Shown: positions 6,901 to 46,107 of the stretch, one piece after another | Layout of the letters: each line of letters begins with the position of its first letter | Position numbering within the stretch: the stretch's first letter is position 1 | From: Rhizaria sp. SCN 62-66 | Taxonomy: Eukaryota | Length of the DNA: 50,516 nt | Direction: 5' to 3' | Assembly (NCBI GenBank): GCA_001724265.1 | Contig: MEDY01000290.1 | Span: 1-50,516, forward strand | Translations under genes and position numbers: made by a program | Notes under the pieces: model-generated | What the model was told of the DNA's origin: nothing | The model's input: the letters and a program-made list of their open reading frames with translations, nothing else | The model's database searches: none

Positions 6901-9900
6901 TGAAGGCAGCGGTTGCTGCGCTTAACAATAACAACAGTCTTGCTAGTGGCAACACCGACAACAATGTCACACGTGTTGATACGAACAGTGTATACACGCT
7001 TGCTGGACTTGTTCCTGCGACTGGTAGCAGTAACGGGCGTGTGAATGAGTACACCTATGACCCTGCTCAAAGCTTAGCCGCCTACAGCGCCGCCTGGACC
7101 GACATCGCCGCGCTTACCACCTTAAGCGGCTCTTTTGTCGGCTCCTCCAAGGGCGCCGCAAACTCCACCGCCGCCGCCGCCGCCGCGGCCGCGGCCGCCG
7201 CGACGGGCCCGCCCCCTCGCACTCCCGCCGAGGCCGTGGTTTACGCGCACAGCCACTCGCTGCCGCTGCCGCCGCTGCCGCCGCCGCTGCTCGTCTCGGT
7301 TACGCCCGGCGAGATCGTTGTGCGGCCTGTGCTGCCCGCAGTGCTCGTCGACGCGCTGGGCGTGCGCGGCGCGGTCGTCTTCGCCAAGGAGGCCGCCAGC
7401 GTCAGCGTCAACGCACCCTCGTCTTCGTCCGGCAGCACCGCCAGTGGCGCTGGTTCATCGAGCAGTAGCAAAACGAGCACCGCCGCGGTCGCGAGCCTGG
7501 GCGTGAGCGACGCGGACTGCGACGTGGTCAGTGTGCAGAGCACGCGCGTGCACGGCTGCGGTGTCGAGGCCATGCCGCAATACCGCCTCACTTTGCGCGT
7601 GCCCTACGCCAGCCTTCTAAGCACCTCCTTAGACGCAAACCCTAGCACGGCACCGCGCTTTTCGCTGCTGCCCGTGTGGGTCTGCGCGCCCATTACGCTC
7701 ACGAGGCTCTTGCCCAACACGGCCTACGTCTACGCGGCCGCCGCGGTATCCGCCACGGCGCACGGAGGTACGCTTTACCGTCTATCTTTGCATTTCGTTC
7801 ACTCATTTAATGATTATGTTTCTTGTTTATGTTTCTGTCGGATGTAGTTTTGTTAATTTCACAAATAACTTGACCGCTCACATAATTTATCTTGTGCTTT
7901 ATATCTTGCTTTCTTTCTCCACAGGTCTGTTCCCGTCCTCCACGACTGCTATCGGCCAAACGTCCCCCCGCGTTGTCACGGCTCTGCCGCTCCCGCGCTC
8001 CTACGCCGCCGCCGCGCTGGCCGCCACTGCGCGTAGGCTGCTTAACGGCGACGCTGCGGCTAAGGGCTCCTCCCAGCAGGGCCCTCACGCGGCGTCTAAG
8101 GGCTCCAAGTCTAAGGGCGCGCGTAAGAGCACCAGCTCCTCCGCCTCCGGCGCGGGCATCACCAAGCCCGGCGCCGCTGTGGTGTGCCTGTCGTCTCCGC
8201 TGCCGACGCTGCCCACGGACAGCAACGCGCTGCTCTCGGCCTGCTCCGATGCGCTCGACGTCGCGCTGCGCCCGCTCTTCGCGCAGTCTAAGTACCCTGA
8301 CTCCGGTGTAAGTGGCACTTCGAGCAGCCCCGCTGCAGTCGCGCTCGCAGCCCACAACGCCCTCACCAATCTCTCTCACAACAACAGCGGCAGCAGCGTT
8401 GACGTCGGCGCTGTGAGCGCTGCGATGACCGCGTCTTCCCCTCTGTTCACTCTGGCCTGCGGTAGCCCCATCCTGGCCACGTCCGCCGCGGTCTCGCTCT
8501 CAGACCGCCTCGCGCCCGCCGCGCTGGCCTCACTGGCCCCTCCGCAGCTGCTGGCTCTGGCGCGCGCGCTCACAGTCGCTGCCGACGTCGTGGCCCTCCG
8601 CCAGGCCGCCGCCGCGCCCGCGCTCGCGCGACACCTCCCCGCGCCGCTGCTCACGGTCACCGGCGTAACGCAGGTCGTGACGGGCCCACTGGACGGCGTC
8701 GGGGACATGCTCGCGCTCGCGCAGGCCCACGCCTCGGCCTCCGTGGCGGCGTCCTCGTCCGCGGCCTCAGCCTCCTCGTCCGCGGCGGCGGCGGCATCCG
8801 GCCCGAACGCCGTGGTGCTCTCCCTGGCGCCCGAGTCGCTGCTGACGCGCACGCTGGCCGTCGTGCGGCCGCTGCTGCTCGCGCTGCGCGTCGCGTGTCT
8901 GCTTTCTGATCCGCTGCCGCCGCTGCGCCTTGCGCTGCGCCTGTACGCGACCGTCGCGCCGCTGCTGCCGAGCCTCTGGGCCGTGCCCGCGCCCGGCGCG
9001 CTGGCGCCCGACGCCGCCGTTGCTGCGGCCGCGCTACTTGCGCCTGTGCTCGCGCCCTGCTTCGCCGCGGTGTGCCACGCGCGCGCCCTGCTGCCGCCGC
9101 ACCGCGCCCCGCTGCCGCTGGCGCGCCTCGCCGCGACGCTGGCATACCTCACGCTCGCCGCCGCCGCGCTATCTAACTCCAACGGCGACGCCGCCAACAG
9201 CGCTGCCGCGGGCGTCGTGGCGGAGACCGTGGCCGCGGCCGCCGCGCGCTCGCGCCCCGCCGCGTTGGCGCTGGCCCGCGCCGCGCGCGCGCACGCCGCC
9301 GCCGCCGCGACCGGCGATCGCCACCGCGCGCTGTTTGCGCTCCTGGCGCAGCGCCTCCACGCCGAGCGCGGCGCCGAGGCCGCCGCGGAAGACGCCGCCG
9401 CGACCGCCGCCGCCGCCACGGCCGCCGCCGCTGCTGCCGGTTCTGGCGGCAACTCTAGCGATGTGACGCCGAGCGTCAGCCGTCAGTCGTTGCTGTCCGT
9501 CCCTTCCAACGCGCGCGGCGCCGCCGGCAGCGGCGGCAAGGGCCAGGCCTCTGCGAGCGGCTTAGGTTCGCAGGGCGGCTTGACTTCCTCGCGCAGCGGC
9601 TCGCGCGGCCCGTCCCCAGCGCCGCATTCGCACAGCTCCGCCGCCGCCGCCGCCGCCGCCGCCGCGGCCGCTGCCGGCGCCGCTGCGGGCGCGACCAACG
9701 GCAACGTCGCCGCTCTGCTGCGCGCGTACCCCGCCGTCGCGCAGTATAACGCCGTGCAGTGCAGCAACGCTGATGCGGCGGCGCCGTCTCTGAGCGCGTT
9801 CGCCGAGTCGGCCGAGGCCGACTGCGCGCTCATCTCGCTGTTGCTGTCGTCGCCGACGCCCGCGCTGGCGGCCGCGGGCGCCGCGCTCGCCCGCAGGCAC

Positions 9901-12900
9901 CCCGCGCGCTGGGCCGCGCTCGCCGCCGAGGCCGGCGTGTGGGAGGACAAGTTAGGCCGCGTCGCCAACGCCGCCGCGCACGCCACCGCCACCGCCAACG
10001 TCGCTGCCGTGGCCGCTGCTGCCGCTGCTGCCGTTGCCAGCGCGACCGAGGCGGCTGCGACTGCCGCTGCTCCGTCTACCAGTGTGACCGCTGTGGGCGA
10101 GGACAGCGAGGCTGACCCCGACGCCGCCGCAGCCGCTGCCGCCGCTGCCGCCTCTAACTCGCCGGCCAGCGCCGTGTCGAGGCTGCTGAGCAGCGCGTCC
10201 CCCGTGGCGTTGCTGCTGCAGTCGCTAGCCGACGACGCCGCCGCCGAGGCCGCGCTGTCCGGCGCCGGCGCCGTTTCCGTCACCAAGCCCAGCAGCTTTG
10301 CTCTCACTGCGGTTGGCCTTGAGACTGCTGCTGCTGCTGCTGCTGCTGCTGGTGATGGTGGTAGTGAGAACGAGAGTGCGAGCGCTGCTCGTGTTGCTGC
10401 GAGCGAGAGCCATGCGCTCGAGGCGTTCCTGACCCCCGCGTCGTGGGTGCCGCGATGCCCACAGTCATTGCAGGACCCGCAGTCGCTGCAGCGCTCACAG
10501 TCACTTGGCAGTCCGGCTGCTGCAAGCACCAGCGCCGCCCCCGAGGCTGCCCCCGGCGCGATCACTTGCTCTGGCATGACCCCCCTCGCAATCGCCGCAG
10601 CCGCCGCGGTCGCCGCGGCCTCGACCGCTTATTGCCCCTTGACTACTCACCTCGCAGCGAGCGCGAGCACTTTCAACGCTTCACAGCCCGCCGCGAGCGC
10701 GAGCAGTGCTCCCGTTGTCTGCAGCGAGCTGCTCGACGCTGAGCTCACGGTCACGCTGCTGCTGGCCGGCCACGCGCTGCCAGCCGCGGTGGCCGCGACG
10801 CTCTCCGCCGCCGCGGCCGCCACGCCCGCCGCCGCCGCCGCGCTGTCGGCGCTGCTGTCCTTCAAGGGCGACGCCCCCTGGCAGTCCGCCTACGCCGCCG
10901 CCGCCGCTGCCGTTGCCTCCGCCGCGACCGCCAGCTCCGCTGGCGGCGCGAACATGGTCGGCAACGACGGTGAGGGTGACGGCGGCAACGCGCGCGCCTC
11001 TCTGTCCGCCGCCGCGCCCGCTCCTGTCGTCGCCGCCTCTGCTCCCGCCGGCGCACCTGCTGCAGTTGTCGGCACTGGCGCTGGCGCTGGCGTCGGCAGC
11101 GGTGCCGGCGGCAACAGCCGCGCCGCCGCGGCTGCGGCCGCCGCCGCGGCCGCCGCCGCGGCCGCCCGCGCGTTCGCGGTGCTCACGGTCATGTTCCCCG
11201 CGCACCCCCGCTTCCTGCCGCTGCTGGGCCGGATCGTCGAGGCCGCGCTGGACCAGGGCGCGGTGCTGCTCGCGATGCACATGCTCGCCGCCGCACCCGA
11301 CGTCGCGCTGACTCACCCCGCGCTGCTCGCAGCGAATGAGACCAAGGCCAAGGTTAAGGCCAAGGCCGCTGCGAGTAAGATGGCCAAGGGCGCTGCGGCC
11401 TCGACCACCGCTCTTGTGACCTATGGCGCGTTCTCTGATGGTGCCGAGTCCGACAGCACGGGTTCGAGCGGTAGCGAGTACGAGTCCGACTCCGAGGCCG
11501 AGTCTCCCGAGTCTACCACCAAGCGCGCCGGTACCACGTCTAAGTATCCCTTAGACGCCGACGCTGAGGCAGACGACGAAGACCTGCTGCTGTTGACTGA
11601 CGCTGCCGTTTCCGCCCGCGCCGCCGTGGCCGCTTCGGCCGCGGTCGTCGCGCTCGCTGCTTCTGAGGGCGCCAGTGAAGACCTCATCCACGAAGTCTTC
11701 AACACCGACGTCGCGCTCGAGCGCCGCGCCGCCGCCGCCGCCGCCGCCGCCACCGCGCGCGCCGCAGCTAAGGCGCGGGCCGAGGCAGCCGCGGCGGCCG
11801 CGGCCGAGGCGGCTGCGGCGGCGGCTGCTGCCGCGGCTGAGGCTGAGGCCGCTGCGGCCGCCTCTGGCGCCCGCGGCCGCCGCCCCCGCTCCTCTCTGAG
11901 TCCCCCGACCACCGCCTCTGCCGCCACTGCCGCCGCCAACGCGGCCGCCGTCGCCGCCGCCGCTGCCGCCGCCGCTGCTTCTGCTGCGCCCGCCGCCGCC
12001 GCCTCCGCCGCCGCCGCGCTCGCGCCGCTTCAGCCCCCGACCGCGGCGACCAGCGTGGACTTGCTTGCTCTGGCGAACTTAGAGGCTCTAAGGGCCCGCG
12101 CCATCTCCGCGTGGCGCGCGCTCAGGGTAAGTACCCGCGAGGCGCCCTTAGCCGCGGCCTCCCCGGCCTCAGTCGCCCTCGCGCGCACCCTTGCTGCCAC
12201 CAAGCTCGCCGGCGCCTCAACTTCCGCGCAGCCGGCTGCGTACAGCCACTTGCTGCCAGTCGCCGGCACCGTCGCGCCCGCGCTGTGGCAACTCTCCCTC
12301 GCGCTCGCGTCCCCGTCTACGTTCATCCACACCAACAGCACAACCGGCGGCGTGGGCGCGCTCGGCGCGGTCCGCGAGTGTCCCGCCGCCGCCGCGGCCC
12401 GCGTTCACCCCGCGCTGCTTTCCGCCTCGCTCACCGCTCCGCCCGCGGCGAATCCCGAAAGCTTTGTGACTACGACGGCCACGGTCCCCGCAGTGGCGAT
12501 GCACGCGCGCTTCGCCGCCGCCGCGGGCGCCCCCGCCGCGCACCTGGCCTTCGTGGCGGCGCTTGTGGCCGGGCTCGTGGCCGGCGCCGGCAGCGTGCCC
12601 GCGCCAGTCGCCGGCGCGCTCGGTGCGGCCAACGCCGCCACCCACGCCAACGCCGCGAGCAGCGCCAGCGGCGTCGCCAGCGCGATCAGCGCCGCGGGCG
12701 CGGGCGTCGGGGCCGAGGAGGAGGAGCTGCTGCGGCTGTGGATCGTCGCCGCCGTCGCCGAAGCCACCACCACGCTTGCTAACAACAGCAGCGCAACTGC
12801 CGGCGCCACAGCGAGCAACATTGCGCCGGCGCTGATGCGCAGCGGCACTCTGAGTGCGAGCGAGAGCGAGGTCGACCTCACCGCGAGCAGCAGCAGCAGC

Positions 12901-15900
12901 AGCGTCGTTGCTGGCACCGCCAGCCGCACGAGCCGTCTCGGCGGCGGCGCGGGGGCGCCCCGCCTCACCGCCGCTGCTGCCGCTGCCGCCGCCGCCGCTG
13001 CCGCCGCCGACGCCGCCGCCGCTGCCGCCGCCGCTGCGGCTGCCTCGACGCCCGCGGCCGCCGCTGCCACCGTCTCTGCCTCGATCTCGACAGCCCTCAC
13101 TTCGCCCTACTTTAGTAACACCGCTAGTGGCGCGAACTGCGCGTTGGGCCCGCTCGCCATCGCGAACAACAGCGCGGCCCTGGCTCTGGCACACGCCGCC
13201 CCTGCCGCCGTTGCCTCTGCGCTCGCCAATCTGTCCAGCGCGCTCGCCGCCACCGCCGCCGCCACCGCGAACGGCGGTGCCCTCGCCGGCGGCGCGAGCG
13301 GCCCGAACTCGATGAGCAGCAGCGGAAACAGCGGCGCGAGCGGCGGCCGCGGTGCCGCTGCGCGCGAGGCCGCGGCCGCCGCGGCCGCCGCGGCCGCGTC
13401 CGCCGCGGCGCAGTCGTCCCAGGACCAGGCCTGGGGCGTTGGCGCGCTCGTGTCCCCTCTGCTCGCGACGCTCCCAGTTCTTTTCGCCCCGCAGTCGACT
13501 GGCGCGACCACCGCGGCGGCGACAACTGCGCTGGCGGCGCTGACGGCGCGCCCGCTGACACCGCTCCGCGCGCTCTGGCTGCAGCGGCTGCGCGCCCTCC
13601 GCAGCGCGCGCGCCGTCTCCCTGGCGGTCCGCGCTGGCGCGCCCGTGGCGGCCGCCGCGGCCGGGCGCTCGATGCTGACGGCGCTGCTGGGCGAGGGCGT
13701 GACGGCCGAGGACGTGGCGCTCATGGCGCTCGCCGCGCCCGCCGCCGCGCCCGAGGACGAGGACGACGTCGCGCTCGCGGCTGCTCTCTCACCCAGCTCA
13801 GCCAGCGTTGCCAACGCTAGCGCGGACGGTGTTGAGGGCGTTGTTGAAGGTGACGCCGTCGCCAAGGCCGCGGTCTCTGCCGCCACGAACGCGATTGGGA
13901 GCACTGCCCAGAGCAATAGTGACGCGAATGCTGCCGAGAGCAAAACCGACGCTAGCGGCAACAGCGGCGCTGCTGGCGCCAGTCAGGACGAGGCGGCCCA
14001 GTTTGCTGCTCTCTTCGACTGCTTCACCATCACGCCCCATCATAGCAGCAGCAACAGCAGCAACTACGGCATCATTAGCGCGGCCGCTCTCGCGGGCGCG
14101 GTGCCGTCTGTGCTGTCGTCGCTGCTGTCGGCGTCGCTCGCGCTCATCAACAACCTCGCCACACTGCGTCGGTCGCGCACACGCGCTGAGCGCGCGGCGG
14201 CGGCCGCCGCCGCCGCGGGCTACGGCGCCGGCGTGCCTTACTGGGTGCCGTCCGAGCTGCTCGCGGTCACCGCACCCGCCGTCGCAGTCATCTCCTCCCC
14301 TCCTTGGCTCCCTCGCACCGCCAACGCCAGCGCCTCAGGCGGCCAGATCCAGAGCGCGAGCGGTGCCGCTGGTGACAAGGCGTGGCAGCAAAACTCGGCG
14401 CACGCCTCCGCGGCGGCCCTGCGCGCGCGCACCAAGGCCGCCGCCGCGCGCGCCGCGGCCCCGCGCCCCGCCCGCCGCTGGCTCGCCGCCGCACCCGCGC
14501 TCGACGCGCCGGGCATCGCGGCGTTGGCGACCTTCACCGCGCGCGCGCTGCTACAGGCGGGCCGCTGGCGCGACGCTGTGCGCCTTTGCCGCGCGCTCGA
14601 CCGCGCCACCGACGGGGCCTTTGCCGCGGCCACGGCGGCCACGGCGGCCGCCGCGCAGCGCGCACTGGCCACGGCCGCGACAGCGCGCGCCGCCAAGGTC
14701 GCTGACTTGCTCGCCGCTGCCCAGGTACGGAGTTGACGCTCAAACGTTTCATTTAATACTTTAATTTCTGTTTTGTTTTTTGTTTTTTGTTTTCTTTTCC
14801 GTGTATACTTTAATGCTATATATTTCAAAACGATTTCTGATTCATATTCACAAACGTTGTTTTTACTTCTCTATTTTGTTTCTATACGCCTTCTACTCAG
14901 GACCGGTTCAAGCAGGCGCTGGGTGCTCTGCGGACCCGCCAGAGCCACCGCCGCAGCGAGGCCCTCCGCCGCGCCGACGAGTCGCTCATCGCGGCGCTCT
15001 CGCACGCTTACGCGCGCGCCCGGCTCCCGCTAGAGTGGGCGCTGGCGCACGCCAAAGCCCGCGAGCAGCACGACGCCGCGCTTGCCGCGCGCGTCGAGCG
15101 CAAGTTAAGCCGCGTGCTGGCCGCCGCGGCGGGCGCGGGCGCGGCGGCGGCGCTGGCGGCGGCGCGCGCTGCGTCGGCGAAGCTCGCCACTGCCATTACG
15201 CTCTCTAGCGCGAGCGCGAGTGCGAACAAGAACACCGCCGGCAAGGGCGGCCGCCGGGCCAGCATTGGCAGCGGCGCCGCGTCTGCCAGCAACGCCAACA
15301 ACGCTTACACGGCCGCTGTGACCGAGTACGAGGCCGCCATCACGGCGCTGCGCGAGGTCCCCCTGGCTGCCGCCGCTGCCTCCGCCGCCGCCGCTACCGC
15401 CGCCGCTGCCAGTGCCGGCGCGGGTGCTACTGCGAGCTCGACCGGTGGCGACAAGGGCCACGACACCGCCGCCGCCGCGCAGGCCAGCGCCGCGACGAGC
15501 GCGAGCCGCGCACAGCTCGTGCTCGCGCTGTTTGAGCTCGGCAACCTGCACCTGCTCGCCGCCTCCGCCGCCGTCGCCGTCCCCCACAACACTGCGAGTG
15601 CGAGCAGCGCCGGCGCGGGCGGCAAGAGCGCGGCCGCGGCCGCGACGGGCGTTGCCGCCGCGGTCTCTGCGTGGAGCGGCGCCGTCGACGCCGTGCTCGC
15701 CATCCCCAGCTGCCTTGCGCCCGCGTCGCTGCCGGACACGCTGCGCGCGCTTGACGGCCAGCCCCCCCGCGCGCGCGCCGACCGCGCGTCGGCTGCGGCG
15801 CTGCGCGCTGGTTTTCCGCCCGCCAGCGACACGGCCGCGGCGGTGACCGTGCGCACCGCGTTCGTGACGGCGCTGGGGCCCTGGGCCGCGATGGCCGCCG

Positions 15901-26426: not shown

Positions 26427-26433
26427 TATAAAA
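26427..26433 (+). promoter_or_regulatory. Candidate TATA box of the kinase gene
   Basis: TATAAAA about 60 nt upstream of the ATG at 26491; position only. Confidence 0.3.
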
Positions 26434-26490
26434 AGCTTCGCTCCCATTTCTGTGCGCTAACTGGTCCATTCTAGTCCTGTAGTCAACACA

Positions 26491-32400: not shown

Positions 32401-32651
32401 CGAACTCCGGTGCGAGTGTGGACGCTGTTGCGGCGGCCAAGGCTCAGGCGCACGCGGTGGCGAAGGCTGAGGCGGATGCGCTCAAAGACAGGTTTACCGA
32501 GGCGTCGTTCGGCGACCTTGACACGGTAATCAGCCATAACAACAATAACAACAGCGCGGAGAACCCTGAGATGAAGACGGTCACGGGTGCGAACGGAGAG
32601 ATGGCTGAAGGGGCGGTTATGGTTGCGCCGTCAATGCCCGGCACGGCTTAA
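26491..32651 (+). CDS. Calcium-dependent protein kinase (CDPK/CAMK group)-like protein with an interrupted catalytic domain; exons 26491-26537, 26774-32651 (~1,974 aa)
   Basis: N-terminal MGCxxS myristoylation/palmitoylation motif; intron GTACGT...CTCAG at 26538-26773. Kinase motifs: G-loop AGGASC, ALK, NEVRIL, GGDLF, HRDVKPEN (27231), DFG (27300), YYVAPE (APE at 27549), DVWSLGVVMYVLLTGRAPF (31116), RPTAWQALHHPW. EF-hand-like loops DHDGDMQLAIDD and DVDKDGAVTPRD plus two degenerate ones. Confidence 0.88.
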
Positions 32652-36847: not shown

Positions 36848-37593
36848 GGGGCCGGGGAGACGCTGGGTGCGGCACGGGGGCAGGGCGGGCAGGTGCAAGG
36901 GGGGGAGTGGGCAAGGTGAAAGTATCGGAGGATGAGGCGGCGGCCATATAAGCGACTGAGAGATATGAATAAGACAATAAATAGAACAACACGCTGTTGA
37001 CATGGAAAGATGTAAATAAGCACAATGACACGTCGGAGAGAGCCGCTGCAGTCTGTTGTGCTCCTTGACCCAATGTCGACGCTGCCGACTCGCTCACTTG
37101 GTCTGGTGACCGTGGGCGCCAGCCGCTGGCTGACCGACCGACTGATTGACCGGTCTGCGAGAAGTTGAGGAGATGAGTTCGTTGTCATTTGATTGTTGTT
37201 TTCCTATTTAATAACGTGCCTGTTATTGTAAACCTTGTGGCCCATTTGGGATTTTGATTATACTTCTCCAATTGACCGTTATCCTTCGGTATCTTCCTTG
37301 CAAGGAACACCTCTCGCTGTTCTCTTTTTCATTGCTCGATCTTGCCACTTTCCGTCTTACTCTCACCCGGATCCTTTATGTTCCTTTCATCTACTACCCT
37401 AGGCCTCTTTCCACTTTACTTTTGTGTCTTGCTGACTGCGCTAGAGCCTCTAAGCTGTTTCCTTAGGCTGGCTTATCGCCCTCGCATTCGCGTCCGACTT
37501 TCACGGCGCTTTGCTATCGCTAACACAGCAACGCGACTCTCCAACCTGAGAGTATAATTTACACACAGTAGTGCTTTCTGCGCATTCACCCCC

Positions 37594-40500
37594 ATGCAGA
37601 CGACCTTCTGCGTTGAGCGCGAGCTCACGCGTCCGACCGTGATCGAGCACTCTCTGCGCGCCCACTTCACGTCGCCTGACGCGATCAACCTTGTCGTCGC
37701 TAAGGCCACCGCGCTCGAGGTGTTCGAGCTGCGCCCGGAGTTCGCGGACGAGGTCGCCACTACGAACAACCTTGCTATCTCACACGCGCCGGTGCAGTCC
37801 AGCGACGCGGGCGCATCAAGCAGTGAGAGCATCAACAGTAGCAGCAGCAGTACAAGTAGCAGTAACAGTAGCGGTGCAAGCGACGACGCTGCCGCGATCA
37901 CGTCTCGCTCTGGCGGCTCTGGCTCCAACAGCACGAACAGCGTTGTGGAGTCCGTCCTCGCCCGCCAGACGCAGCACCCCGAGTCGGCCTCGCAGCCGCC
38001 GCTGCTGCGCGTGCTGGAGACGCGCGTCTACGGGCGCATTGAGGCGTTGCGCAGCATCCAGCTGCCGCACCGCGACACGCACAGCCTGCTTGTGGCCTGC
38101 CCCGACGCCAAGCTCTCGGTGGTGCATTTCGACCGCGCCACGCAGTCGCTGCAGACGCTCGGCATGCACTGCTTCGACCACTGGAGGCCCGACGGCGCTG
38201 GCGCAGCGACGCCAGCGGCCACCCGAGCCTCTGCCGCGGCGCCGCCGCTGCTCGCGGTGGACGGTGATAGCCGCTGCGCCGCAATGGCGTGCTTCGGCAA
38301 TCAGGTTATGATCTTCGGCCACAACCACCACCAGCGCGCGCTCTCCGCCACGCTCGGCGGCGCGAACGCAGGATCCAACGGCAGCGGGTCTAGCTCGAGT
38401 GCGAGTGCAGGCGCGGGCGCGAGCTCTAGCTTGGTGCCGCATAACCCCACGGGCGTCACCTCAGCGCTGTGTCTCTCCACCACGCTTGCGGCCCTCCCGG
38501 CGCCGCCCGCCGCCAAGGCTGCCTCGGCCTCGGCCGCCGCCGCCTCCGCCGCGGCCGCCGACACCGCCGCGGCCGCCGCGGCCGCGCTGACCGCTGCCGC
38601 GGCGTCGCCGCTGGCGCACACGATGACGCTGTCGCTGTCGCAGTATCTGTCGTGCCCCACCGCGCGCGTTAAGGACATGTTGTTTCTGCACGACACGGCG
38701 ACGCCGTCGCTGCTGCTGCTGGTCGAGACGCAGCGCACCTGGTCCGGCCGCTACAGCGCCGTCAAGGCCTCGTGCTCGCTGCTGGTGCTTTCGTTCCCGT
38801 CGCTGCACTCGCTGCCGACGCTGACGACCAAGCTCGACCACCTGCCCCACGACGCCTTCTCGCTCGTCCCTGTCCCGCCCTCCCTTCCCACCTCCACGCT
38901 GGGCCGCGGCTCCGGCTCCGGCACGGGCGCGGGCGCGGGCGCGCGCGGTGAGAGCAACGGTGTGCTGATCCTCTCCGCGTCGTGCATCTACCACTTCCAC
39001 AACCTGGTCATCGCGTACACGCTCGCGACGAACGAGTTCGGCGACAACTCGGAACACTCGAACAACACCAGCGGCAGCAGCGGCGCGCTCTACCGCACCG
39101 TCCCCATGGCCACACCGAGCTATTCGCATAGCGCGGGCAACGGTGATGGCTACTCAACGAACAACAGTAACAGCGAGGACAACGTGATTACTGCCTGCGG
39201 TATCGACCTCACGCACGCAAAGATCGCCTTCTTTGCCGCTAATGACGTATCTAACGCTGCTAATCGCAGTAACGCTTTTGGCGGTGGCGGTGGCGGTCGC
39301 TGGGGTCCGTCGCATATGCAGCAGCAACCGCAGTCGCAGCAAATCTTGGCTTTGCTCACCACGGCCACGGGTGCGGGCTACATCCTTACTCTGCAGCTGT
39401 CGGACGCCAATGTAAGGGGCATGGTACTTACCCCCGTCGCGGGTGCCGACTGGGGGCTCTTCGCGTCCACCCTTACACGTCTGGCGAAGGGGGTCGTGTT
39501 CATGGGCAGTCGTCTCGCCGACTCGCTCCTGCTCCAAATCTGCTGCTCACAGTTGCGATCGCAGAACACCACTAACGCCGATGCAGAGCAGCAGTCTGGT
39601 GGTTTCACGCCTAGCGGCTTGACTTCCGCCCTCAGCGGCCAAACCTCCGCGCAGCCGCCCGCGCTGGCGAGCACGCTGCTGGTGCGCGACACGCTGCCGA
39701 ACCTTGCGCCGCTGACGCACCTCAGCGCGGCGCCGCACGCGAGCGCCAACGACCCGGTGCCGCCGCCGCAGCGGCCGCCGTCGTCGTGCCTGGGCCCCGG
39801 GCCACGCGCGTTGCAGCCGACGCACGCGGAGCAGAGCGCGGCCGTCAAAGGCGGCGCCGCGCCGCTGCCTGTGCGCGTGTCGGCCTGCAGCGGCTACGAG
39901 CGCGGCGGCAAGCTCGTGCAATTCAAGCAGGGCGTTGCGCCGCGGCTGTTGGCGTTTGCGCCCGTCGCCGCTGCGCCGGTCCTCGTCTCGTCCTCGCAGC
40001 CGAGCTCACACGACGACGGCGCAAGCTCGAGCGGCGCGAGCGCGGCAAGCAGCAACGCTAGCGCGCCTGCGCTGTTTCCGTTCGTCCCGAACGCGGTCAC
40101 GTCTCTGTACCCGCTGCTGCTGCCGACCGCGCTCGCCGACACGGCAGCTGCGGCCGCCGCCAACTCGGTTGCCGGCCGGCCGCTGGCCGCGCTGGCCGTG
40201 GTGCGTAACGACCACCGCCGCCGCCGCCGTCTGCGCGAGAAGATCACTGCCACGGGTGTCGCAGGTCCTGGTGCTTCTGCAGCGGCTGCGGCCGAGGTCG
40301 CGGAGACGGCGGCCGAGCTCGCCCGCACGGCGGCGGCGGCGGCCGCGTTTGAGCAGGCGCTGGTGACGTTTGAGAGCGAAAAGAAGGTTTTATCCGGGTT
40401 TCTCCCCGCGCCGCCTGTTTCCTCTGCGGCCGCAGTGGACGGCAGCGGGAGTGTAAGTACCCCCTCAGACGCCGTGAGCGCGAGCGTGCAGCAGTCGCTG

Positions 40501-43500
40501 CTGGTGGTGTCTCTGAGCGACGGCACGCGCGTCTTCGAAGTCGCTGACATTGCGCTGAACGACGTGCAGAAGCACCTGCAGACGCTTTCGCACCGCACGA
40601 AGGTCAGCACCACGAACGCAAACGCTATCACCAACAGCAATAACAGCAGCGGCAGCAACGCGAACAGCAGCACGAAGACGATGACTGACGCGGACGCCGA
40701 CTCTAGCAAGAACGACAGCTCGAACGCTGACGCTACGAGCTCAGACGGCGCGAGCAGCAGCAATGACAGTCCAAGCGACGACGCCGCCGAGGGCAACGAA
40801 GAGGAGGCCGTCGCGCTGCCCGAGCCCGTGCTGATGGCGCTTGACGCCATCCTGAACACGGGCGCGCTCGCCGAAGTGACCGACCAGACGCGGCTGCGGC
40901 GCCACGAGCCCACACTGGCGTGCGGCACCGTGCTCGGCGCGCTGGGCGCCGTGGTCCAGGTCACCGCGCGGGCCGTCGTGCTCTTCGACGGCTGCTACCA
41001 GGAGCTCTGCAGCATCAAGCCCACCTCGCAGTACGCCGCCGGCAACGCTGGCAATGCGGGGAGCATGAGCAACGCTGCTGCTGGCGGTGCCGCCGCGAGC
41101 GCCGGTGTCGGCAACGCTGCCGACGCGGCGAACGGCGTGAACGAGGACGTGGTCGTGGTCAAGGCAATCGTGCTAGACCCTTACGTTGTCGTCGAGCTAT
41201 CCAACGGCGCCCTCGTTAGTTATTACTTCAACGCGAACCCCGAGACTGAGGACTGGTACGCCGTCGCCGAGGTGCCCCCAGCCATTTACAGGGGTTTGAG
41301 TGCCGCTGGCGGCGCTGCGGGGATGAACACCACGAACCACACCGGCGTTGACAATGCAGCGGTGCCTGCGGCGCATGACGGCTTGAGTTATGACACGTCG
41401 CGCCTTCACTTCCCGCCGACGCAGAGCATCCCCCCCGTCTTCAATCACTCTAGCACTAGTTCCTACGATCCTGTGACGGCGATCACCGCGCAAAGCGTCA
41501 GTCTGTACTCGCTTTTCCCCGTGTTGACGCGCGCGCTGGCGACTTTACGCGACACCGCCATCGCAAACGGACTCGTCACTCCCCACGCACAGTCCGCGAG
41601 CAGTAGTACCGCGTCTATGGCTACTGCAACGACTAATGTCGACGGCGGCGTTGTGGCTGGCGCGTACCGCGTCGCGCGCGCGGTGCTGCAGCAGCTCGTG
41701 CGCTCCGGCGCGATCGCCGACCGGGCCACCGCGAGCAAAGCTGAGCTCGACCTCACCGCCATGGCCAAGGCGGCGTTCTCGCACATCCACACTCATGGCA
41801 ACGGCAACGGCAACGATAGCTCAGCTGTTTCGATCCCCGGGGTCGCGAGTGCGAATGCCCGTGTCGACGAGATGGTCGTGAAGCTGGAAAATGAATTCCT
41901 CGAGCACGGCGCCGTCGATTTTCTCGGTCCCGCGGCCCGCCGCTCCCGCGCGCACACCTCGGGCGGCGGAATTTTCGGCGACGATAGCGAGGACGCCGAC
42001 GTCCAGCTTGGCGCTCCCAACCCTTCCGGCAGTAACAACAACGGCGGCGGCGACGACGCCAACGACGACAGTGTGGCGCTGGGCCTGCCCCCGCTGCCGC
42101 CGCTGGCGCTGCTGTTCGTTGCCCGCGTGCGCGTGCTCGAAGTCTACGCGCTCGAGACGGGGCAGCTGCTCTTCGCGACGCCCACGCTCGGCAACCGCGC
42201 GCCGCTGCTGCCCAACGCGCTCCACAACAACGCAAGTAGCTCTAGCAACGCGAGTGCGGCTGCGGGCGGTAGAAACAGCGTGGCCGGCGCCGGCGAGGAG
42301 ACGGCAATGGTCGCGGCTACGGCGGCGACGACCGCGATCGCCCCCGCCATCACGGACCTCTGCGTGCCGCCCCCGCCGGCCTCGGACCCGCGCGCGGCCC
42401 TTCACCTCTTCGCGCTCGCGGAAACTGGAGACCTCTCCATTTTGCGCGCGTTCGAGTTCGCCCCGGCTTCGGTCTGGGCCTCGCTCGTCACGACCGCCTT
42501 CGCCACCTTCGTGCCCCTCCGCTCGCAGCAGCTAGGTGGCAGCGACGCTGTAGTCAACGCATCTACGACTGCAGTCGATCCGTACACCGGGAGCAAGGTC
42601 ACGTCTGAGTCTGCGTCTCTGTGGCCGTTCCTACTGGGCGCCCCATCCCTGTGGCTCTCGCACACCGGCAGCGCCAACAGCGGCGCCGGCGCCGCCTCGC
42701 GCCACAGCACCCGCGCGCAGAAGTCGCAGTGGCAGGCGGCGTCGCAGTGGCAGCCGTCGTCACTGCTATCGCTGCTGCCGCTCCACGCGCTGCCGCTGCG
42801 CTTCGTGCTGGCCCCGCACACGGCGGCCACGCGGCCCCTCGCCGGGGAGCGCGCCGCCGTCGACGCCCTGGCCGCGGCGCTGCGGACCGCGCTCGACGCC
42901 GTCCCCTCGCCCCCCGCGACTCCCTCCGCGCCGTCCGCGCCGTCCTCCGCGGCGGCGACGGCGGCGGCGCCGTTTCCCTTCGGGCTGACGGCCGAGTCTG
43001 CCAACGCGCTGTACGACATGATCACGGCGTCCAAGACGGTCACGGGCCAGCTCCTGACGCAGCAGCAGGCCGAGGCGCTGCAGGCCGAGGCGCTCACACA
43101 GACCAGCCTCGCCACTGCGGCGGCGACTGCCGCCGGCGGCGCGACCGCTGTTGCGTCGAGTGCCGCGAACGCTGCGAACTCGGCTGACTCGCAACAGTCG
43201 CAGCAGCCGGAGCAACCGCAGCAGCAACAACAGCAGCAGCAGCTTTCTGCAGTCGCCAGCATCAGCGCCAACAACAGCGTCAAGAGTCTCGTGCTTTCTC
43301 GCTATTTTCTTTCGCCCGCGTTCGACCTGCCTTCGCTGAACAAGCTCACCGCCTTCACCGACGTCTCGGGCCACTCCGGCGTCCTGCTCTCGGGCACGGC
43401 CCCGTACCTTTTTGCGCACTCGCGCGGCACGTACTCGGCGCACCCGCTGCTGCCGCCCGCAGCCCCGCTGCCGCCACGCATGCTGCCATCGCTGTTGCTG

Positions 43501-46107
43501 CCGCCTGCGCCGACGCGGCTGTTGTCGGCGCTCGCCGCGGCGCCGTTGTCCCCCGCCGTGCTTGCCACGGCCTTCCTGCCGCTGCCGCGCTCGCGCAGCG
43601 CCGTGCTTGTCCTGGCCGACCTCAACGGCAACCTCGCCACGGCGCGCCTGCCGCCCGCGGCGCCCGCGTCTTTCGCCTACCCGATCCCCACGCCGGCCGG
43701 GTTGCACAGGGCGTCGCCCGCCACGGCATACTCCAGCAACAGCAGCTTCGTGCCGCCAGCGCAACTCTTCCTCCGCGAAACCGCCCGTGCGCGCGCGGCG
43801 GCGGCGGCTGCGGAGGCCGCGGCTGCGGCGGCCGAGGCCGAGGCGGAGGCCGAGGCGGCGGCTGAGGCTGCGGCGGCGGCTGCTGCTGCTGTTGGCGGCG
43901 GCAATAGTGCTGCGGAGGCTCCTGTCAGCGCGAGCAAGAAAGCGAAGAAGGGCGCGCGCAACGCGGTGGCGGCGAAGGGGTCTGCAGGCAGTGTATCTGC
44001 CGCCGTTGCCTCTGCTGCTCTGACGCACACCTACGGTGCCAAGAATAACAACGCTAACGCTAGCACCAAGAGCAGCGAGTCCGCCGGAGGAGACTCTGGC
44101 TCCGCTGCGGCGCCATCCGATGCGCTGCTCTATGGGTTCGTCTCCGCTTTCACTCACTCATACGGCTCACTTGCCAACCCGAGCTCGAGCGTCGCAAATC
44201 CAAGCGGCAACACCGACGTCGAGGTTAAGAAGGAGCCTGATGTGCTGAAGAACAACACTGTTGTCTCTAAGAGTGCTCCCTCAAGTTCGAGTGTTAGTGG
44301 CGCAGCGTTGCTTTCCGCCTGCTTGTCCCACCCTCTGGCGTCCCCCCTAGCAGTGCCCCTCTTCACCCCATCTGTCCTCAGTGCGGCCACCACCAACAGC
44401 GGCGACGGCTCGAGCTCTAGTAGCAGTGCGATTGCGCTCAACGAGGTTGACTTGCCTCCTCTGGGCGGCTTGACTTCCGAACAGCACGCCCGTCAGTCTG
44501 CTGCTCGTCGCTACTTGCAGTCGCAGTCTCAGGGTAAGTACCCGCGCTCTAAGTACCTCCGCGCCTACTCGCGCCATGCGGCCTCGCTGCTCACCACCTC
44601 CGAGGGCCTGGCTTACACCGCGCTGCCGCTGAGCGCGTCGCCCGTTTTCGTGACGCACCACGCGGCCACCAACATCGACGTCGTCGTCGTCGCCAACCTT
44701 AAGCAGGCGCAGTCGCGCGAGGTGCCGTGTGCTCTGTCGCTCGCGGCTACCGAGGTGACACACCAGGTGCTGTTCCTTAACCGCGAGAGCGGCGAAGTGA
44801 TGGCCAAGTACGACGCTATCACCGATGACGAGCTGCCCACGGCGCTGCTGCCCATCACGCTCAACAAGGTGCCCTACTTGGCGCTCTCGCTCGCGTCTAA
44901 CAAGGGCGTCGAAAACCTCTCCAAGGGCCGCGTCGTGCTCTTCCGCCTCTCGTACACGCTCGGCTACACACATACTGGCGCGACCAAGTGGTTCCTTAAG
45001 GTGAAGCCGCACGAGCACGCAGAGCAGGGCCCCGTGACGGCCATATGCGAGATCGACAACATGCTCTGCGTCTGCGTTGGCGCGCGCATCATGCTGTACA
45101 GCATGGAGAACAACGTGCTCGACGGCAAGGCTTTCTTGGACGTCGAGGCGATGTGCACCAACATCTACGCCGTCAAGGACATGCTCGTCGCCACTAACGC
45201 CTACCGCGGCCTGATTTTGATCTGCTGGGACAAGGAGGCCAAGTCGTTGTATGTCCTGGGCAAGGACGGCGAGCACACGACCACCTTGTCCTCCGCCGTG
45301 GTCATCCACGAGGGGCCCGACGGGCCGGACGGCCAGCTCGCGCTCGGCCTGTCCTTCGCGGTCGCCGACGATAAACGCAACATCCAGCTGCTACGCTACC
45401 TCCCCGCGAGGAACCGCATCGCGAGCAACAACCGCTTGCTGCCGCGCGCCGACGCGCACTTGGGCACGCGCGTGCTGCATCTGCTGTCGCTGCGCGCGCC
45501 GTCGCTGACCGCGCTGACCGACGCCGCCGTCACGCTGCGCGCGCGCGCGTTGTCATTGTCGCCCGCGCTGGCCGCCGCGCGGCGTCCGCTGCTCTCGCAG
45601 CGCAAGGACCCGTCGGCGCTGGCGCGCTTACCGCCGCTGGCGCACGCGCGGCCGCCCGCCGCCGCGCCCACGGCCGTGACGGTGGCGGCGCTGGCGGCCC
45701 GCGACCGTGCGCGGCTGCTGCACCCGCTGCGCACGCTCCTGCTGGGCGCGGGACAGGACGGTGCGTTGCTGGCGATCGCGCCGCTGGAGCGCACCGTGTT
45801 CGCGCGCGTGATGGCCGTGCAGGTCGCGCTCGCGTGCGTGGCCCCGCAGGCGCTGGGGCTGAACCCGCTGGCGTTCCGCGCCTTCGCCGGCCCGCTGACG
45901 CAGCACCGCGAGGGTTACCGGCGCAACATTGTCGACGGGAACCTGCTCGAACTCTTCCTCTCGCTCGAGGTCGGCACGCAGAAGAAGATTGCGCACGCGG
46001 TCGGCGCGACGCCCGCCGCGGTGATCGATGCCGTGATGCTGTGCCAGCAGCTCATGAGGCTCGCGCCCGGGCTGCCCGCGTATGCTGCATTTGACCGCTA
46101 CGATTAA
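37594..46107 (+). CDS. CPSF1: Cleavage and polyadenylation specificity factor subunit 1 (CPSF160/Cft1), intronless, expanded to 2,837 aa
   Basis: Family motifs in order: PTVIEHSLRAHF...NLVVAK, DAKLSVVHFD, TWSGR, LPHDAF, NGVLI, FMGSRLADSLL, ACSG, EPTLACG...VVQVT, SKGRV, GPVTAI, ADDKRNI, RADAHLG, GLNPLAFR, RNIVDGNLL. Confidence 0.93.
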   Translation: MQTTFCVERELTRPTVIEHSLRAHFTSPDAINLVVAKATALEVFELRPEFADEVATTNNLAISHAPVQSSDAGASSSESINSSSSSTSSSNSSGASDDAAAITSRSGGSGSNSTNSVVESVLARQTQHPESASQPPLLRVLETRVYGRIEALRSIQLPHRDTHSLLVACPDAKLSVVHFDRATQSLQTLGMHCFDHWRPDGAGAATPAATRASAAAPPLLAVDGDSRCAAMACFGNQVMIFGHNHHQRALSATLGGANAGSNGSGSSSSASAGAGASSSLVPHNPTGVTSALCLSTTLAALPAPPAAKAASASAAAASAAAADTAAAAAAALTAAAASPLAHTMTLSLSQYLSCPTARVKDMLFLHDTATPSLLLLVETQRTWSGRYSAVKASCSLLVLSFPSLHSLPTLTTKLDHLPHDAFSLVPVPPSLPTSTLGRGSGSGTGAGAGARGESNGVLILSASCIYHFHNLVIAYTLATNEFGDNSEHSNNTSGSSGALYRTVPMATPSYSHSAGNGDGYSTNNSNSEDNVITACGIDLTHAKIAFFAANDVSNAANRSNAFGGGGGGRWGPSHMQQQPQSQQILALLTTATGAGYILTLQLSDANVRGMVLTPVAGADWGLFASTLTRLAKGVVFMGSRLADSLLLQICCSQLRSQNTTNADAEQQSGGFTPSGLTSALSGQTSAQPPALASTLLVRDTLPNLAPLTHLSAAPHASANDPVPPPQRPPSSCLGPGPRALQPTHAEQSAAVKGGAAPLPVRVSACSGYERGGKLVQFKQGVAPRLLAFAPVAAAPVLVSSSQPSSHDDGASSSGASAASSNASAPALFPFVPNAVTSLYPLLLPTALADTAAAAAANSVAGRPLAALAVVRNDHRRRRRLREKITATGVAGPGASAAAAAEVAETAAELARTAAAAAAFEQALVTFESEKKVLSGFLPAPPVSSAAAVDGSGSVSTPSDAVSASVQQSLLVVSLSDGTRVFEVADIALNDVQKHLQTLSHRTKVSTTNANAITNSNNSSGSNANSSTKTMTDADADSSKNDSSNADATSSDGASSSNDSPSDDAAEGNEEEAVALPEPVLMALDAILNTGALAEVTDQTRLRRHEPTLACGTVLGALGAVVQVTARAVVLFDGCYQELCSIKPTSQYAAGNAGNAGSMSNAAAGGAAASAGVGNAADAANGVNEDVVVVKAIVLDPYVVVELSNGALVSYYFNANPETEDWYAVAEVPPAIYRGLSAAGGAAGMNTTNHTGVDNAAVPAAHDGLSYDTSRLHFPPTQSIPPVFNHSSTSSYDPVTAITAQSVSLYSLFPVLTRALATLRDTAIANGLVTPHAQSASSSTASMATATTNVDGGVVAGAYRVARAVLQQLVRSGAIADRATASKAELDLTAMAKAAFSHIHTHGNGNGNDSSAVSIPGVASANARVDEMVVKLENEFLEHGAVDFLGPAARRSRAHTSGGGIFGDDSEDADVQLGAPNPSGSNNNGGGDDANDDSVALGLPPLPPLALLFVARVRVLEVYALETGQLLFATPTLGNRAPLLPNALHNNASSSSNASAAAGGRNSVAGAGEETAMVAATAATTAIAPAITDLCVPPPPASDPRAALHLFALAETGDLSILRAFEFAPASVWASLVTTAFATFVPLRSQQLGGSDAVVNASTTAVDPYTGSKVTSESASLWPFLLGAPSLWLSHTGSANSGAGAASRHSTRAQKSQWQAASQWQPSSLLSLLPLHALPLRFVLAPHTAATRPLAGERAAVDALAAALRTALDAVPSPPATPSAPSAPSSAAATAAAPFPFGLTAESANALYDMITASKTVTGQLLTQQQAEALQAEALTQTSLATAAATAAGGATAVASSAANAANSADSQQSQQPEQPQQQQQQQQLSAVASISANNSVKSLVLSRYFLSPAFDLPSLNKLTAFTDVSGHSGVLLSGTAPYLFAHSRGTYSAHPLLPPAAPLPPRMLPSLLLPPAPTRLLSALAAAPLSPAVLATAFLPLPRSRSAVLVLADLNGNLATARLPPAAPASFAYPIPTPAGLHRASPATAYSSNSSFVPPAQLFLRETARARAAAAAAEAAAAAAEAEAEAEAAAEAAAAAAAAVGGGNSAAEAPVSASKKAKKGARNAVAAKGSAGSVSAAVASAALTHTYGAKNNNANASTKSSESAGGDSGSAAAPSDALLYGFVSAFTHSYGSLANPSSSVANPSGNTDVEVKKEPDVLKNNTVVSKSAPSSSSVSGAALLSACLSHPLASPLAVPLFTPSVLSAATTNSGDGSSSSSSAIALNEVDLPPLGGLTSEQHARQSAARRYLQSQSQGKYPRSKYLRAYSRHAASLLTTSEGLAYTALPLSASPVFVTHHAATNIDVVVVANLKQAQSREVPCALSLAATEVTHQVLFLNRESGEVMAKYDAITDDELPTALLPITLNKVPYLALSLASNKGVENLSKGRVVLFRLSYTLGYTHTGATKWFLKVKPHEHAEQGPVTAICEIDNMLCVCVGARIMLYSMENNVLDGKAFLDVEAMCTNIYAVKDMLVATNAYRGLILICWDKEAKSLYVLGKDGEHTTTLSSAVVIHEGPDGPDGQLALGLSFAVADDKRNIQLLRYLPARNRIASNNRLLPRADAHLGTRVLHLLSLRAPSLTALTDAAVTLRARALSLSPALAAARRPLLSQRKDPSALARLPPLAHARPPAAAPTAVTVAALAARDRARLLHPLRTLLLGAGQDGALLAIAPLERTVFARVMAVQVALACVAPQALGLNPLAFRAFAGPLTQHREGYRRNIVDGNLLELFLSLEVGTQKKIAHAVGATPAAVIDAVMLCQQLMRLAPGLPAYAAFDRYD
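44528..44546 (+). repeat. Dispersed motif copy CTCAGGGTAAGTACCCGCG, followed by a second copy CTAAGTACC at 44549
   Basis: Identical to 12121-12139 but translated in a different frame (SQGKYPR versus LRVSTR). Confidence 0.9.

Follow-up and report, generated by a model that had tools for sequence, protein, structure and literature searches.

A short, mostly sense-oriented sequence unit dispersed through the giant exons of a rhizarian contig: possible remnants of an intron-type element

We analyzed a stretch of 50,516 nt from Rhizaria sp. SCN 62-66 (GenBank assembly GCA_001724265.1, contig MEDY01000290.1, positions 1 to 50,516 of the forward strand; hereafter the window), a contig that is also present in bioreactor and wastewater metagenomes. 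An initial annotation had described a short motif, ending in CTTAG in its complete form, that recurs in unrelated exons of this contig, and this motif is the subject of our analysis. The window consists of coding blocks of about 72-76% GC divided by AT-rich stretches (exons are about 75% GC, introns and intergenic DNA about 30-45% GC), and the third codon positions of the motif-bearing exons are almost all G or C. Six giant open reading frames (ORFs) dominate the contig, all of them in the same direction:

920-3844, + strand, giant ORF; borderline Pfam match to CFAP54_N within 920-3841 (27 bits, cut-off 27)
3939-7847, + strand, giant ORF
7633-14736, + strand, giant ORF carrying motif copies; no match in a Pfam search
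14841-25889, + strand, giant ORF of 3682 codons carrying motif copies; no match in a Pfam search
26622-32651, + strand, giant ORF; kinase and EF-hand matches in a Pfam search of 26622-32648
37558-46107, + strand, giant ORF of 2849 codons; Pfam matches to CPSF_A and to the RSE1/CPSF1 propeller

The proteins encoded by these ORFs consist predominantly of low-complexity sequence rich in Ala, Ser, Asn and Gly. Pfam confirmed the name CPSF1 that had been given to the last gene. The name CFAP54 was not confirmed, as the borderline match lies in the first ORF and none was found in the ORFs that carry motif copies; the four ORFs of 920-25889, which together exceed 8000 codons, possibly form one CFAP54-like gene. 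With 2849 aa, the CPSF1 protein compares with about 1400-1900 aa in most full-length homologues that we found, and one distant relative is likewise giant (2676 aa).

We aligned all matches to the core word TAAGTAC in the window and in eight related loci from a second metagenome (described below), and kept those with GC-rich surroundings, 27 of 32. Their consensus, C-[A/G]-G-T-[G/C]-TAAGTACCCCCTTAG-[A/C]-C, defines a unit of about 21-22 nt. Conservation extends from -5 to +16 around TAAGTAC, and normal codon periodicity resumes on both sides. The unit is laid out as a donor-like head (GT[G/C]TAAGTA), a C/T tract and an acceptor-like TTAG tail, and its GT-to-AG span is 18 nt. At the GT position (-3/-2), G is found in 19 and T in 24 of the 27 copies. 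All 10 G-type 18-mers (the eight metagenome loci plus window positions 24673 and 40451), as well as the C-type copy at position 2535 of locus L008, present GT and AG 18 nt apart; many degenerate copies are without one of these two borders. In its dominant phase the unit forms seven codons, [A/G]GT [G/C]TA AGT ACC CCC TTA G[A/C]C, with the translation [S/G][V/L]STPL[D/A].

Two subtypes can be distinguished, G-type (GTGTAAGT...) and C-type (GTCTAAGT...). The arms of the C-type, GTCTAAG and CTTAGAC, are complementary over 7-8 bp and fold better than shuffled sequences (z = -2.1 to -2.95); the G-type presents a mismatch in the dyad and folds no better than shuffles (z = -0.8 and +0.1). Many copies consist of the head only (A-half), and such heads are often grouped, two to four in a span of 15-80 nt, as at 8286-8316, 18258-18287, 18861-18943 and 44528-44560. 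No target-site duplication or flanking direct repeat is visible around the copies, and no branch-point-like word fits in the 18-nt unit.

Every string that had been quoted for this contig was recovered at its coordinates, including the looser and the minus-strand copies. Four sequences are repeated exactly: the 19-mer CTCAGGGTAAGTACCCGCG at 12121 and 44528, GTGTAAGTACCCCCTYAG at 24673 and 40451, GCCGGTCTAAGTACC at 18138 and 24021, and CTGGCGGTGTAAGT at 18271 and 24667. Looser copies start at 7616, 8288, 8308, 11538, 15963, 18261, 18864 and 44549, with minus-strand copies at 39423 and 33541. The copies are as follows (z, folding relative to shuffles):

7616-7634, + strand, degenerate C-type copy TCTAAGCACCTCCTTAGAC; CTAAG/CTTAG hairpin (z = -2.1), read L-S-T-S-L-D
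8286-8316, + strand, pair of A-halves, GTCTAAGTACC (read S-K-Y-P) and, 20 nt on, GGTGTAAGTGG; without the acceptor-like half
11538-11556, + strand, full C-type copy GTCTAAGTATCCCTTAGAC with a loop one base shorter; perfect hairpin of 7-8 bp (z = -2.6)
12121-12151, + strand, GGTAAGTACC copy in which CCCTTAG is preceded by 9 extra bases; its first 19 nt recur exactly at 44528-44546
15963-15978, + strand, degenerate copy GCAAGTACTCCCTTAG (A-S-T-P-L), containing a strain variant (G>A) at 15967
18138-18152, + strand, A-half GCCGGTCTAAGTACC, 15 nt identical to 24021-24035
18258-18287, + strand, two A-halves, AATGTAAGTACC and GGTGTAAGTGGG, 18 nt apart
18861-18943, + strand, cluster of four A-half variants (GATGTAAGTACC, GGGTAAGTGG, GATGTAAGTGTC, GCTGTAAGCTCGTAC), an arrangement consistent with local duplication and decay
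24021-24047, + strand, full C-type copy with TTAA for TTAG, within a longer inverted repeat GCCGGT...ACCGGC (z = -2.95)
24667-24690, + strand, perfect copy of the G-type, GTGTAAGTACCCCCTTAG, with a GT-to-AG span of 18 nt, read G-V-S-T-P-L-A
33541-33550, - strand, partial match GTAAGTAC in AT-rich non-coding DNA
37450-37466, + strand, hairpin-type match CTAAG-N7-CTTAG in non-coding DNA of the CPSF1 leader region; of uncertain membership in the family
39411-39436, - strand, antisense full-like copy GGTAAGTACC-ATG-CCCCTTAC, in a conserved beta-propeller strand of CPSF1
40449-40470, + strand, near-perfect copy of the G-type, AGTGTAAGTACCCCCTCAGAC, translated S-V-S-T-P-S-D and located in a CPSF1 loop that is variable
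44528-44560, + strand, tandem pair of A-halves, CTCAGGGTAAGTACCCGCG followed 15 nt on by CTCTAAGTACCTCC, in the other phase (G-K-Y-P-R-S-K-Y-L)

The non-coding minus-strand copy claimed at 33541 is thus present, as a partial match that is probably due to chance. The copies are clumped: about 12 of them lie between 7.6 and 25 kb, as compared with none in 12.7 kb of ORF sequence (920-7600 and 26622-32651).

The motif is real, far above chance and statistically robust. The head TAAGTACC was found 11 times in the window (10 on the + strand and one on the - strand), relative to a mean of 0.22 and a maximum of two in 100 dinucleotide shuffles. Within the 39,024 nt of ORF sequence, the 10 sense occurrences contrast with 0.78 expected when synonymous codons are shuffled and 0.08 when codon order is shuffled, and none of 1000 shuffles reached this count. 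The enrichment thus stands up to the codon-preserving null that had been proposed as a check. Related words are similarly in excess: TGTAAGT (7 vs. 0.04 expected) and, in the exons, GTAAGT (10 vs. 1.2), CTAAGT (8 vs. 1.85), TGTAA (11 vs. 1.6) and TAAGTA (11 vs. 1.15). In an unbiased ranking of k-mers, this family tops all the non-simple words. The antisense word GGTACTTA is not significantly enriched in the ORFs (1 vs. 0.04-0.06). As for the paired word CTAAG...CTTAG, its spaced form is enriched (CTAAG-N4-8-CTTAG, 3 vs. 0.04) but CTTAG alone is not (9 vs. 8.6-10.4).

The copies also impose codons that are otherwise rare in these genes, as had been noticed: GTA represents 27 of 848 codons for its amino acid, CTA 28 of 1269, TTA 22 of 1269 and AGT 141 of 1573. 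Identical letters are read as V/L-S-T-P-L in one frame and as S/G-K-Y-P in another, which bears out the use of two reading frames, and the copies share their rare codons. When the peptides STPL and KYP are encoded by ordinary codons, they are no commoner in real than in non-coding frames, and synonymous shuffling abolishes the signal. With two phases, rare codons and no excess of the peptides in common codons, the claim that selection on the protein cannot explain the motif is upheld: this is a signal at the level of the nucleic acid.

We then searched for the motif elsewhere. A scan of a metagenome collection with the 18-mer GTGTAAGTACCCCCTYAG yielded 11 loci, eight of which (L001-L004, L006 and L008-L010) come from one other metagenome. 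These eight loci have mutually unrelated flanks and are, like the window, a patchwork of GC-rich ORFs and AT-rich islands that resemble introns. They also hold copies beyond those matched by the search, including a perfect C-type copy in L008 and four core copies in L009; the C-type copy of L008 (2528-2549) and the one at 24021-24047 of the window both possess extended complementary flanks. We conclude that the eight loci are contigs of a related organism and that the motif is present in a second organism. The remaining matches, L005/L011 (a single locus) and L007, look like chance matches in other organisms and were excluded from all counts. Two matches in viral contigs, which are AT-rich and without other copies, were likewise judged to be due to chance and left out, and the prokaryote genome collection gave no match to GTNTAAGTACCCCCTTAGAC.

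The distribution of the copies relative to the genes is highly asymmetric. We counted strands and phases over the window and the eight related loci (ORFs of at least 200 codons; 83.9 kb in total). Among the 28 core copies located in long ORFs, eight of which were ascertained by the search pattern itself (a pattern blind to ORF strand), 25 are in sense orientation and three are antisense. Of the 25 sense copies, 21 use the phase xTA-AGT-ACC and four the phase AAG-TAC; the phase with TAA as a stop codon is not used at all. For the 16 full copies, with both head and tail, the bias is 14 sense to two antisense, and none falls in the 24% of the sequence outside long ORFs. Sense and + strand are confounded within the window, where all the large genes run in the same direction; in the related loci, the bias tracks the ORF and not the strand of the contig. 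The initial annotation had the motif written into exons regardless of frame and strand. Its enrichment stands, but the indifference to frame and strand largely does not: 25 of 28 copies are sense, 21 of 25 share one phase and the antisense word is not enriched.

This asymmetry points to something that is read or generated at the level of RNA or transcription. Because none of the 25 sense copies occupies the stop-containing phase, the data also argue that the copies are normally read through. Tolerance is the best explanation of why one of the two open phases is so strongly preferred, since the residues encoded in the favored phase are typical of these disordered regions; in the other phase the peptide is C/S-K-Y-P-L-R, with the nearly unused codon AGA (3 of 571 Arg codons).

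We compared the unit with the introns of its host, whose borders in the window were predicted from ORFs and base composition. Short AT-rich intron-like segments part the first four ORFs, with the following borders (the slash marks the exon end): CCAG/GTACGA...TTTCAG, GGAG/GTACGC...CCACAG and CCAG/GTACGG...ACTCAG. The predicted introns of the window are:

near 3816, + strand, predicted intron
7768-7925, + strand, predicted intron
14724-14900, + strand, predicted intron
near 26538, + strand, predicted intron
near 36560, - strand, predicted intron
near 47359, - strand, predicted intron
near 48621, - strand, predicted intron

These host introns are AT-rich and 100-200 nt long, and their donor AG/GTACG, found in seven of seven introns of the window and in six of 11 introns of the related loci, appears to constitute an unusual consensus. 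In exons, GGTACG and GTACGT occur at their expected frequency, with neither excess nor avoidance. One predicted intron in L008, in a CDK-like kinase gene, starts with CAG/GTAAGTACCGCGCCCCC, which is the motif's head.

RNA data indicate that at least some copies are retained. Contigs of a polyA-RNA run pass ungapped through 8286-8316 (record 17, 8086-8590), 15963-15978 (record 19, 15896-16213) and 24021-24047 (record 24, 23837-24269). That these contigs represent RNA is supported by the near-zero depth of the run over intergenic 25676-26999, where DNA runs have depth. The three bridged copies are all degenerate, and contigs hide minor isoforms. Among the pieces listed, no RNA piece bridges the perfect copies at 24673 and 40451, the former being bridged by a DNA-like contig only (X5 record 31); an RNA contig at 17768-18179 ends 27 nt beyond the copy at 18138 and was not counted as bridging it. 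The joints considered were the 15 listed of 1184, in a background of thousands of spurious joints and loose ends from low-complexity GC repeats, and stretches devoid of RNA coverage were given no weight. Independently of these data, the GT-AG variants of 17 nt (11538) and 25 nt (12127) lie inside intact frames of 2367 and 3682 codons, and those copies must therefore be translated; in particular, splicing of the 17 nt from GT to AG in the 11538 copy would break the 2367-codon frame. We tentatively infer that the perfect copies are unspliced as well. Strain data revealed one substitution in a degenerate copy (15967 G>A) and no presence/absence difference among the variants listed.

We also examined whether copies add length to the genes. 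The antisense copy at 39411-39436, the only one in an alignable region, adds no length relative to seven CPSF1 homologues; the sense copies all lie in variable, unalignable segments. Word-index searches with the CPSF1 tail and a search with region 3225-3400 of the 3682-aa ORF retrieved no close orthologues (the protein itself at most), and an exhaustive HMMER search found only distant CPSF1 relatives with at most 38% identity. In these relatives, homology to CPSF1 begins a few residues past the pair of A-halves at 44528.

Taken together, we tentatively favor the reading that a lineage-specific family of intron-type elements is represented here by miniature copies, whether members or remnants, which are in frame and unspliced, while giving it a probability that falls well below one half. 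Under this reading, copies would enter, or be copied into, transcribed exons co-directionally with transcription. The unit would be too short to be removed by a spliceosome whose usual, predicted introns are 100-200 nt long, and for this reason only those copies whose length is a multiple of three and that are free of stops in the host frame would persist. They would then be translated, as [S/G][V/L]STPL[D/A] or S/G-K-Y-P, in disordered low-complexity parts of giant proteins, where they would decay by point mutation and duplicate locally. Both the intron-type origin and this mode of spread are what we infer from the pattern of copies. Indeed, exact 18-mers with unrelated flanks at two sites of the window and in eight loci would fit copying from a common source, as does the length of the conserved unit, which exceeds that of a typical protein-binding word. 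The coexistence of identical and progressively degenerate copies, together with tandem or near-tandem partial copies (in the window clusters and in L009), fits birth, local duplication and decay, and the clumped spread argues against a uniformly required signal. The splice-like ends of the unit and the predicted L008 intron that opens with its head also speak for this reading, as do the unused stop phase, the off-length variants in intact frames and the three bridged copies. Intron-generating elements are characterized by their co-orientation with transcription and their confinement to exons. By analogy, sense polarity and exon restriction would be expected of intron-type elements, whose splice signals are usable only in the sense orientation, and not of DNA transposons, binding sites or modification targets.

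Several observations weigh against this interpretation. The donor of the host is AG/GTACG and not GTAAGT, and the host introns are AT-rich where the element is C-rich; the unit thus resembles a generic intron, and maybe a minor intron class of this lineage, rather than the mainstream introns of its host. We know of no mechanism for copying a unit of 18-21 nt, no target-site duplication accompanies the copies, and C replaces G at the first donor position in about 30% of them. In exons whose codons end almost entirely in G or C, the head TAAGTACC, itself AT-rich, persists in more copies than the tail does, which hints at selection on the head and not at neutral decay. The 21:4 preference between the two open phases needs the additional assumption that C/S-K-Y-P-L-R is less well tolerated, and the copy at 39411-39436, judging from the alignment of homologues, is not an insertion. 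Finally, no full-length parent (a long intron with a GTAAGTACC start and a CCCTTAG end) was found in the 84 kb examined. Provisionally, we file the copies with introners and related intron-type elements, with an exonic RNA signal as a serious alternative.

A stronger version of the intron-type reading, which we regard as decidedly unlikely, is that the 18-nt GT[G/C]TAAGTACCCCCTTAG is itself a self-propagating intron-like element, a "micro-introner" and the smallest yet seen, that enters mRNAs co-directionally. The route of entry might be reverse splicing by the spliceosome with subsequent reverse transcription and recombination, or some form of RNA-templated repair. Such a unit would owe its survival to a length divisible by three and to the lack of stops in two phases, which would allow it to be either spliced or translated.

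According to the main rival, the unit would be an exonic RNA cis-element under selection that acts without splicing, either as an "intron mimic" or as the target of a guide RNA; we consider this doubtful but a real possibility. In one version, the U1 snRNP would recognize the GUAAGUA head, and a factor of acceptor or poly(C) type would recognize the C/U-tract-UUAG tail; in another, the whole 20 nt would pair with a small RNA. All these readers are hypothetical. The element would affect the processing, export, stability or translation of the giant-exon mRNAs. It would account for the restriction to exons and to the sense strand, with the near absence of antisense copies needing no mobility at all, and for the persistence of an AT-rich head in exons of 75% GC. 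Copies reduced to the A-half are common and clustered, like many multi-site RNA-binding elements, and the same 18-mer is found in two organisms. TGTAA and TAAGTA are in exonic excess, while GGTACG, which corresponds to the real donor, is neither enriched nor avoided, and the 39411 copy illustrates that a motif-like sequence can arise without insertion. On the other hand, exact identity over 18-22 nt at no fewer than 10 unrelated sites is hard to obtain by independent point mutation, many copies are degenerate and two long ORF stretches totaling 12.7 kb are without copies. Position -1 is T and not the G typical of donors, and position +1 is C in eight of 27 copies. In addition, Rfam detected no snRNA or other RNA family in the window or matching the motif (no family at its gathering score, and only noise, at E values up to 10, around two copies).

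The initial annotation had proposed a site for a DNA-binding protein, a modification target or a palindromic repeat similar to the Rickettsia palindromic elements. These mechanisms are disfavored because they predict little or no transcription bias as well as non-coding copies, where we observed a sense bias of 25:3, no full copy in non-coding DNA, no target-site duplication and palindromy restricted to the C-type minority. A site read at the DNA level (bound by a protein, modified, or acting through a hairpin or cruciform overlaid on the coding sequence) is an unlikely candidate in our view. The size of the unit, about 20 bp, suits such a site, and so do its partial dyad symmetry (GTCTAAG...CTTAGAC; GGGTA-AG-TACCC), the excess of CTAAG-N4-8-CTTAG and the folding of the C-type. 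Yet the strong asymmetry relative to transcription argues against a symmetric DNA reader, and the majority G-type is mismatched in its dyad and folds no better than shuffles.

Also improbable, in our judgment, is a very small palindromic transposon of DNA type (or what remains at its former site) or a short patch of templated repair, comparable to MITEs or to the in-frame Rickettsia palindromic elements. In its favor, dispersed copies are present in both identical and decayed form, the C-type copies are palindromic (two of them with extended complementary flanks), and the genome contains another tiny palindromic insert at 3864-3907. Against this, no target-site duplication was detected, none of the 16 full copies is non-coding and their strand bias is 14:2; 18-22 nt is far below any known transposable unit, and the 39411-39436 copy is demonstrably not a length insertion. 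The palindrome at 3864-3907, located in the predicted first intron, is a perfect inverted repeat of 21+21 nt with a 2-nt center, flanked by GTCT on both sides and occurring once in the window; its appearance is that of a very small foldback insert accompanied by a duplication of 4 bp.

We leave a small probability, slightly less than for either of these two, to something outside the readings listed here. A genuine 18-nt micro-intron or exitron, of which perfect GT[G/C]TAAGTACCCCCTTAG copies would sometimes be spliced and would be harmless in frame if retained, is quite unlikely. Its appeal lies in the GT at -3/-2 and the AG at the end, in perfect copies that are all exactly 18 nt, in the sense orientation and in the lack of a bridging RNA piece, among those listed, for 24673 and 40451. 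However, the unit is without a branch-point-like sequence, the predicted real introns are 100-200 nt long and start with GTACG, the listed RNA contigs retain three degenerate copies, and no copy out of 25 is in the stop-containing phase, which efficient splicing would allow. Lastly, a short linear peptide motif ([VL]STPL or SKYP) under protein selection, or a chance by-product of codon and context bias, is largely refuted and highly improbable: 21 of the 25 sense copies do share a heptapeptide pattern, and the copies lie in the kind of disordered segment that hosts linear motifs, but the second phase of the same DNA encodes unrelated peptides, the rare codons are common to the copies, STPL in common codons is not in excess over non-coding frames and none of 1000 synonymous shuffles met the observed count.

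Further candidates were rejected. TGTAA does not behave as a poly(A) signal, as it overlaps one stop codon and is absent downstream of the other two genes. Off-frame "ambush" stop codons would not require one fixed 18-mer, and a programmed frameshift site does not agree with a frame that is continuous across all copies. Telomere-like or spliced-leader relics were set aside, as the perfect copies share their start and end and occur as a single unit per site inside ORFs.

Other repeated sequences were observed in the window. A second dispersed word, (CAG)GGCGGCTTGACTT(CC), is read Q-G-G-L-T-S with the rare codons TTG and ACT:

9571-9590, copy of the second word
21831-21850, copy of the second word
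39611-39630, copy of the second word
44461-44480, copy of the second word

The word GGCTTGACTT occurs four times in the ORFs, always in sense, relative to 0.01-0.03 expected. GCGGCTTGACTT is also present in the related loci L002, L004 and L009, with at least one L004 copy antisense in ordinary coding sequence, and the CTCAGGG found upstream of two copies of the second word is shared with one variant of the main motif. Another word, GCTCACGGTC (in L-T-V contexts), was found six times in the ORFs of the window relative to 0.27 under synonymous shuffling, an excess that may stem from repetition within the giant ORFs. The window opens (1-180) with four head-to-tail copies of a 45-bp unit, in which 11-mers recur at 5, 50, 95 and 140. 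The AT-richer parts hold ordinary genes, at 35771-37093 (- strand) and 49640-50516 (+ strand). Named from their translations alone, one gene of these parts reads like a two-exon ORF of nitronate-monooxygenase type, and the ORF at the end of the window may encode a ribosomal protein similar to L24e.

If the intron-type reading is true, these exons would be a natural record of intron-like sequence absorbed into coding sequence, which bears on intron gain and loss and on the severalfold swelling of proteins in some protists. The "micro-introner" version would provide a direct and datable trace of intron-type sequences colonizing exons and of the in-frame growth of giant proteins. If the copies are instead exonic RNA signals, they would represent an unusual regulatory word of about 20 nt running through the coding sequence of many unrelated genes. 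Either way, the motif is a clean and strongly polar tag that could help to spot contigs of this uncultured lineage in metagenomes.

In full-text literature searches, GTAAGTACC and CTAAGTACC turned up solely in primers and constructs without relation to the motif, and a search for in-frame palindromic elements in eukaryotic genes gave nothing comparable. One introner paper (PMC12130899), as far as a search of its text for these terms extends, mentions neither footprints, excision, remnants nor in-frame copies. To our knowledge, and as far as these searches go, no eukaryotic nuclear element of 18-22 nt that is dispersed, exon-restricted, sense-polar and translated has been described. The HIP1, uptake and REP sequences are similarly short over-represented oligomers tolerated in several frames, but they are prokaryotic, palindromic or oriented relative to replication, and have known or suspected readers at the DNA level, whereas the polarity observed here follows transcription. 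Exonic motifs that resemble 5' splice sites are bound by the U1 snRNP without splicing, in telescripting and nuclear retention. They share with our unit a GTAAGT-type word in sense orientation that is present in transcripts and unused as a donor; they are, however, normally depleted in mRNA exons and measure 6-9 nt, as compared with a unit of 21 nt with a fixed tail.

Spliceosomal introns of 15-25 nt exist in some ciliates and nucleomorphs. Like exitrons and such ultra-short introns, the unit presents GT...AG within a coding exon, a length that is a multiple of three and a sequence that is nearly all consensus; unlike them, it shows no sign of removal here, it has no branch site and the other introns of its host are 100-200 nt long with GTACG. 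The Rickettsia palindromic elements are, in the same manner, dispersed nucleic-acid repeats located in frame in unrelated genes and translated. They are bacterial, 100-150 bp long and clearly palindromic, while the motif described here is five to seven times shorter, eukaryotic, strongly sense-biased and palindromic only in a minority subtype.

The closest parallels are the introner elements of Micromonas, Aureococcus, dinoflagellates and others. Introners differ in being tens to thousands of nucleotides long and spliced, while the unit here is 18-22 nt, retained in the RNA contigs seen and translated; no pair of terminal inverted repeats or target-site duplications was found here, and the ordinary introns of the host differ from the element. 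What introners have in common with the motif of this contig is that many nearly identical copies lie at unrelated sites in genes, in the same orientation as transcription and with ends that resemble splice signals, and that they are found in aquatic protists.

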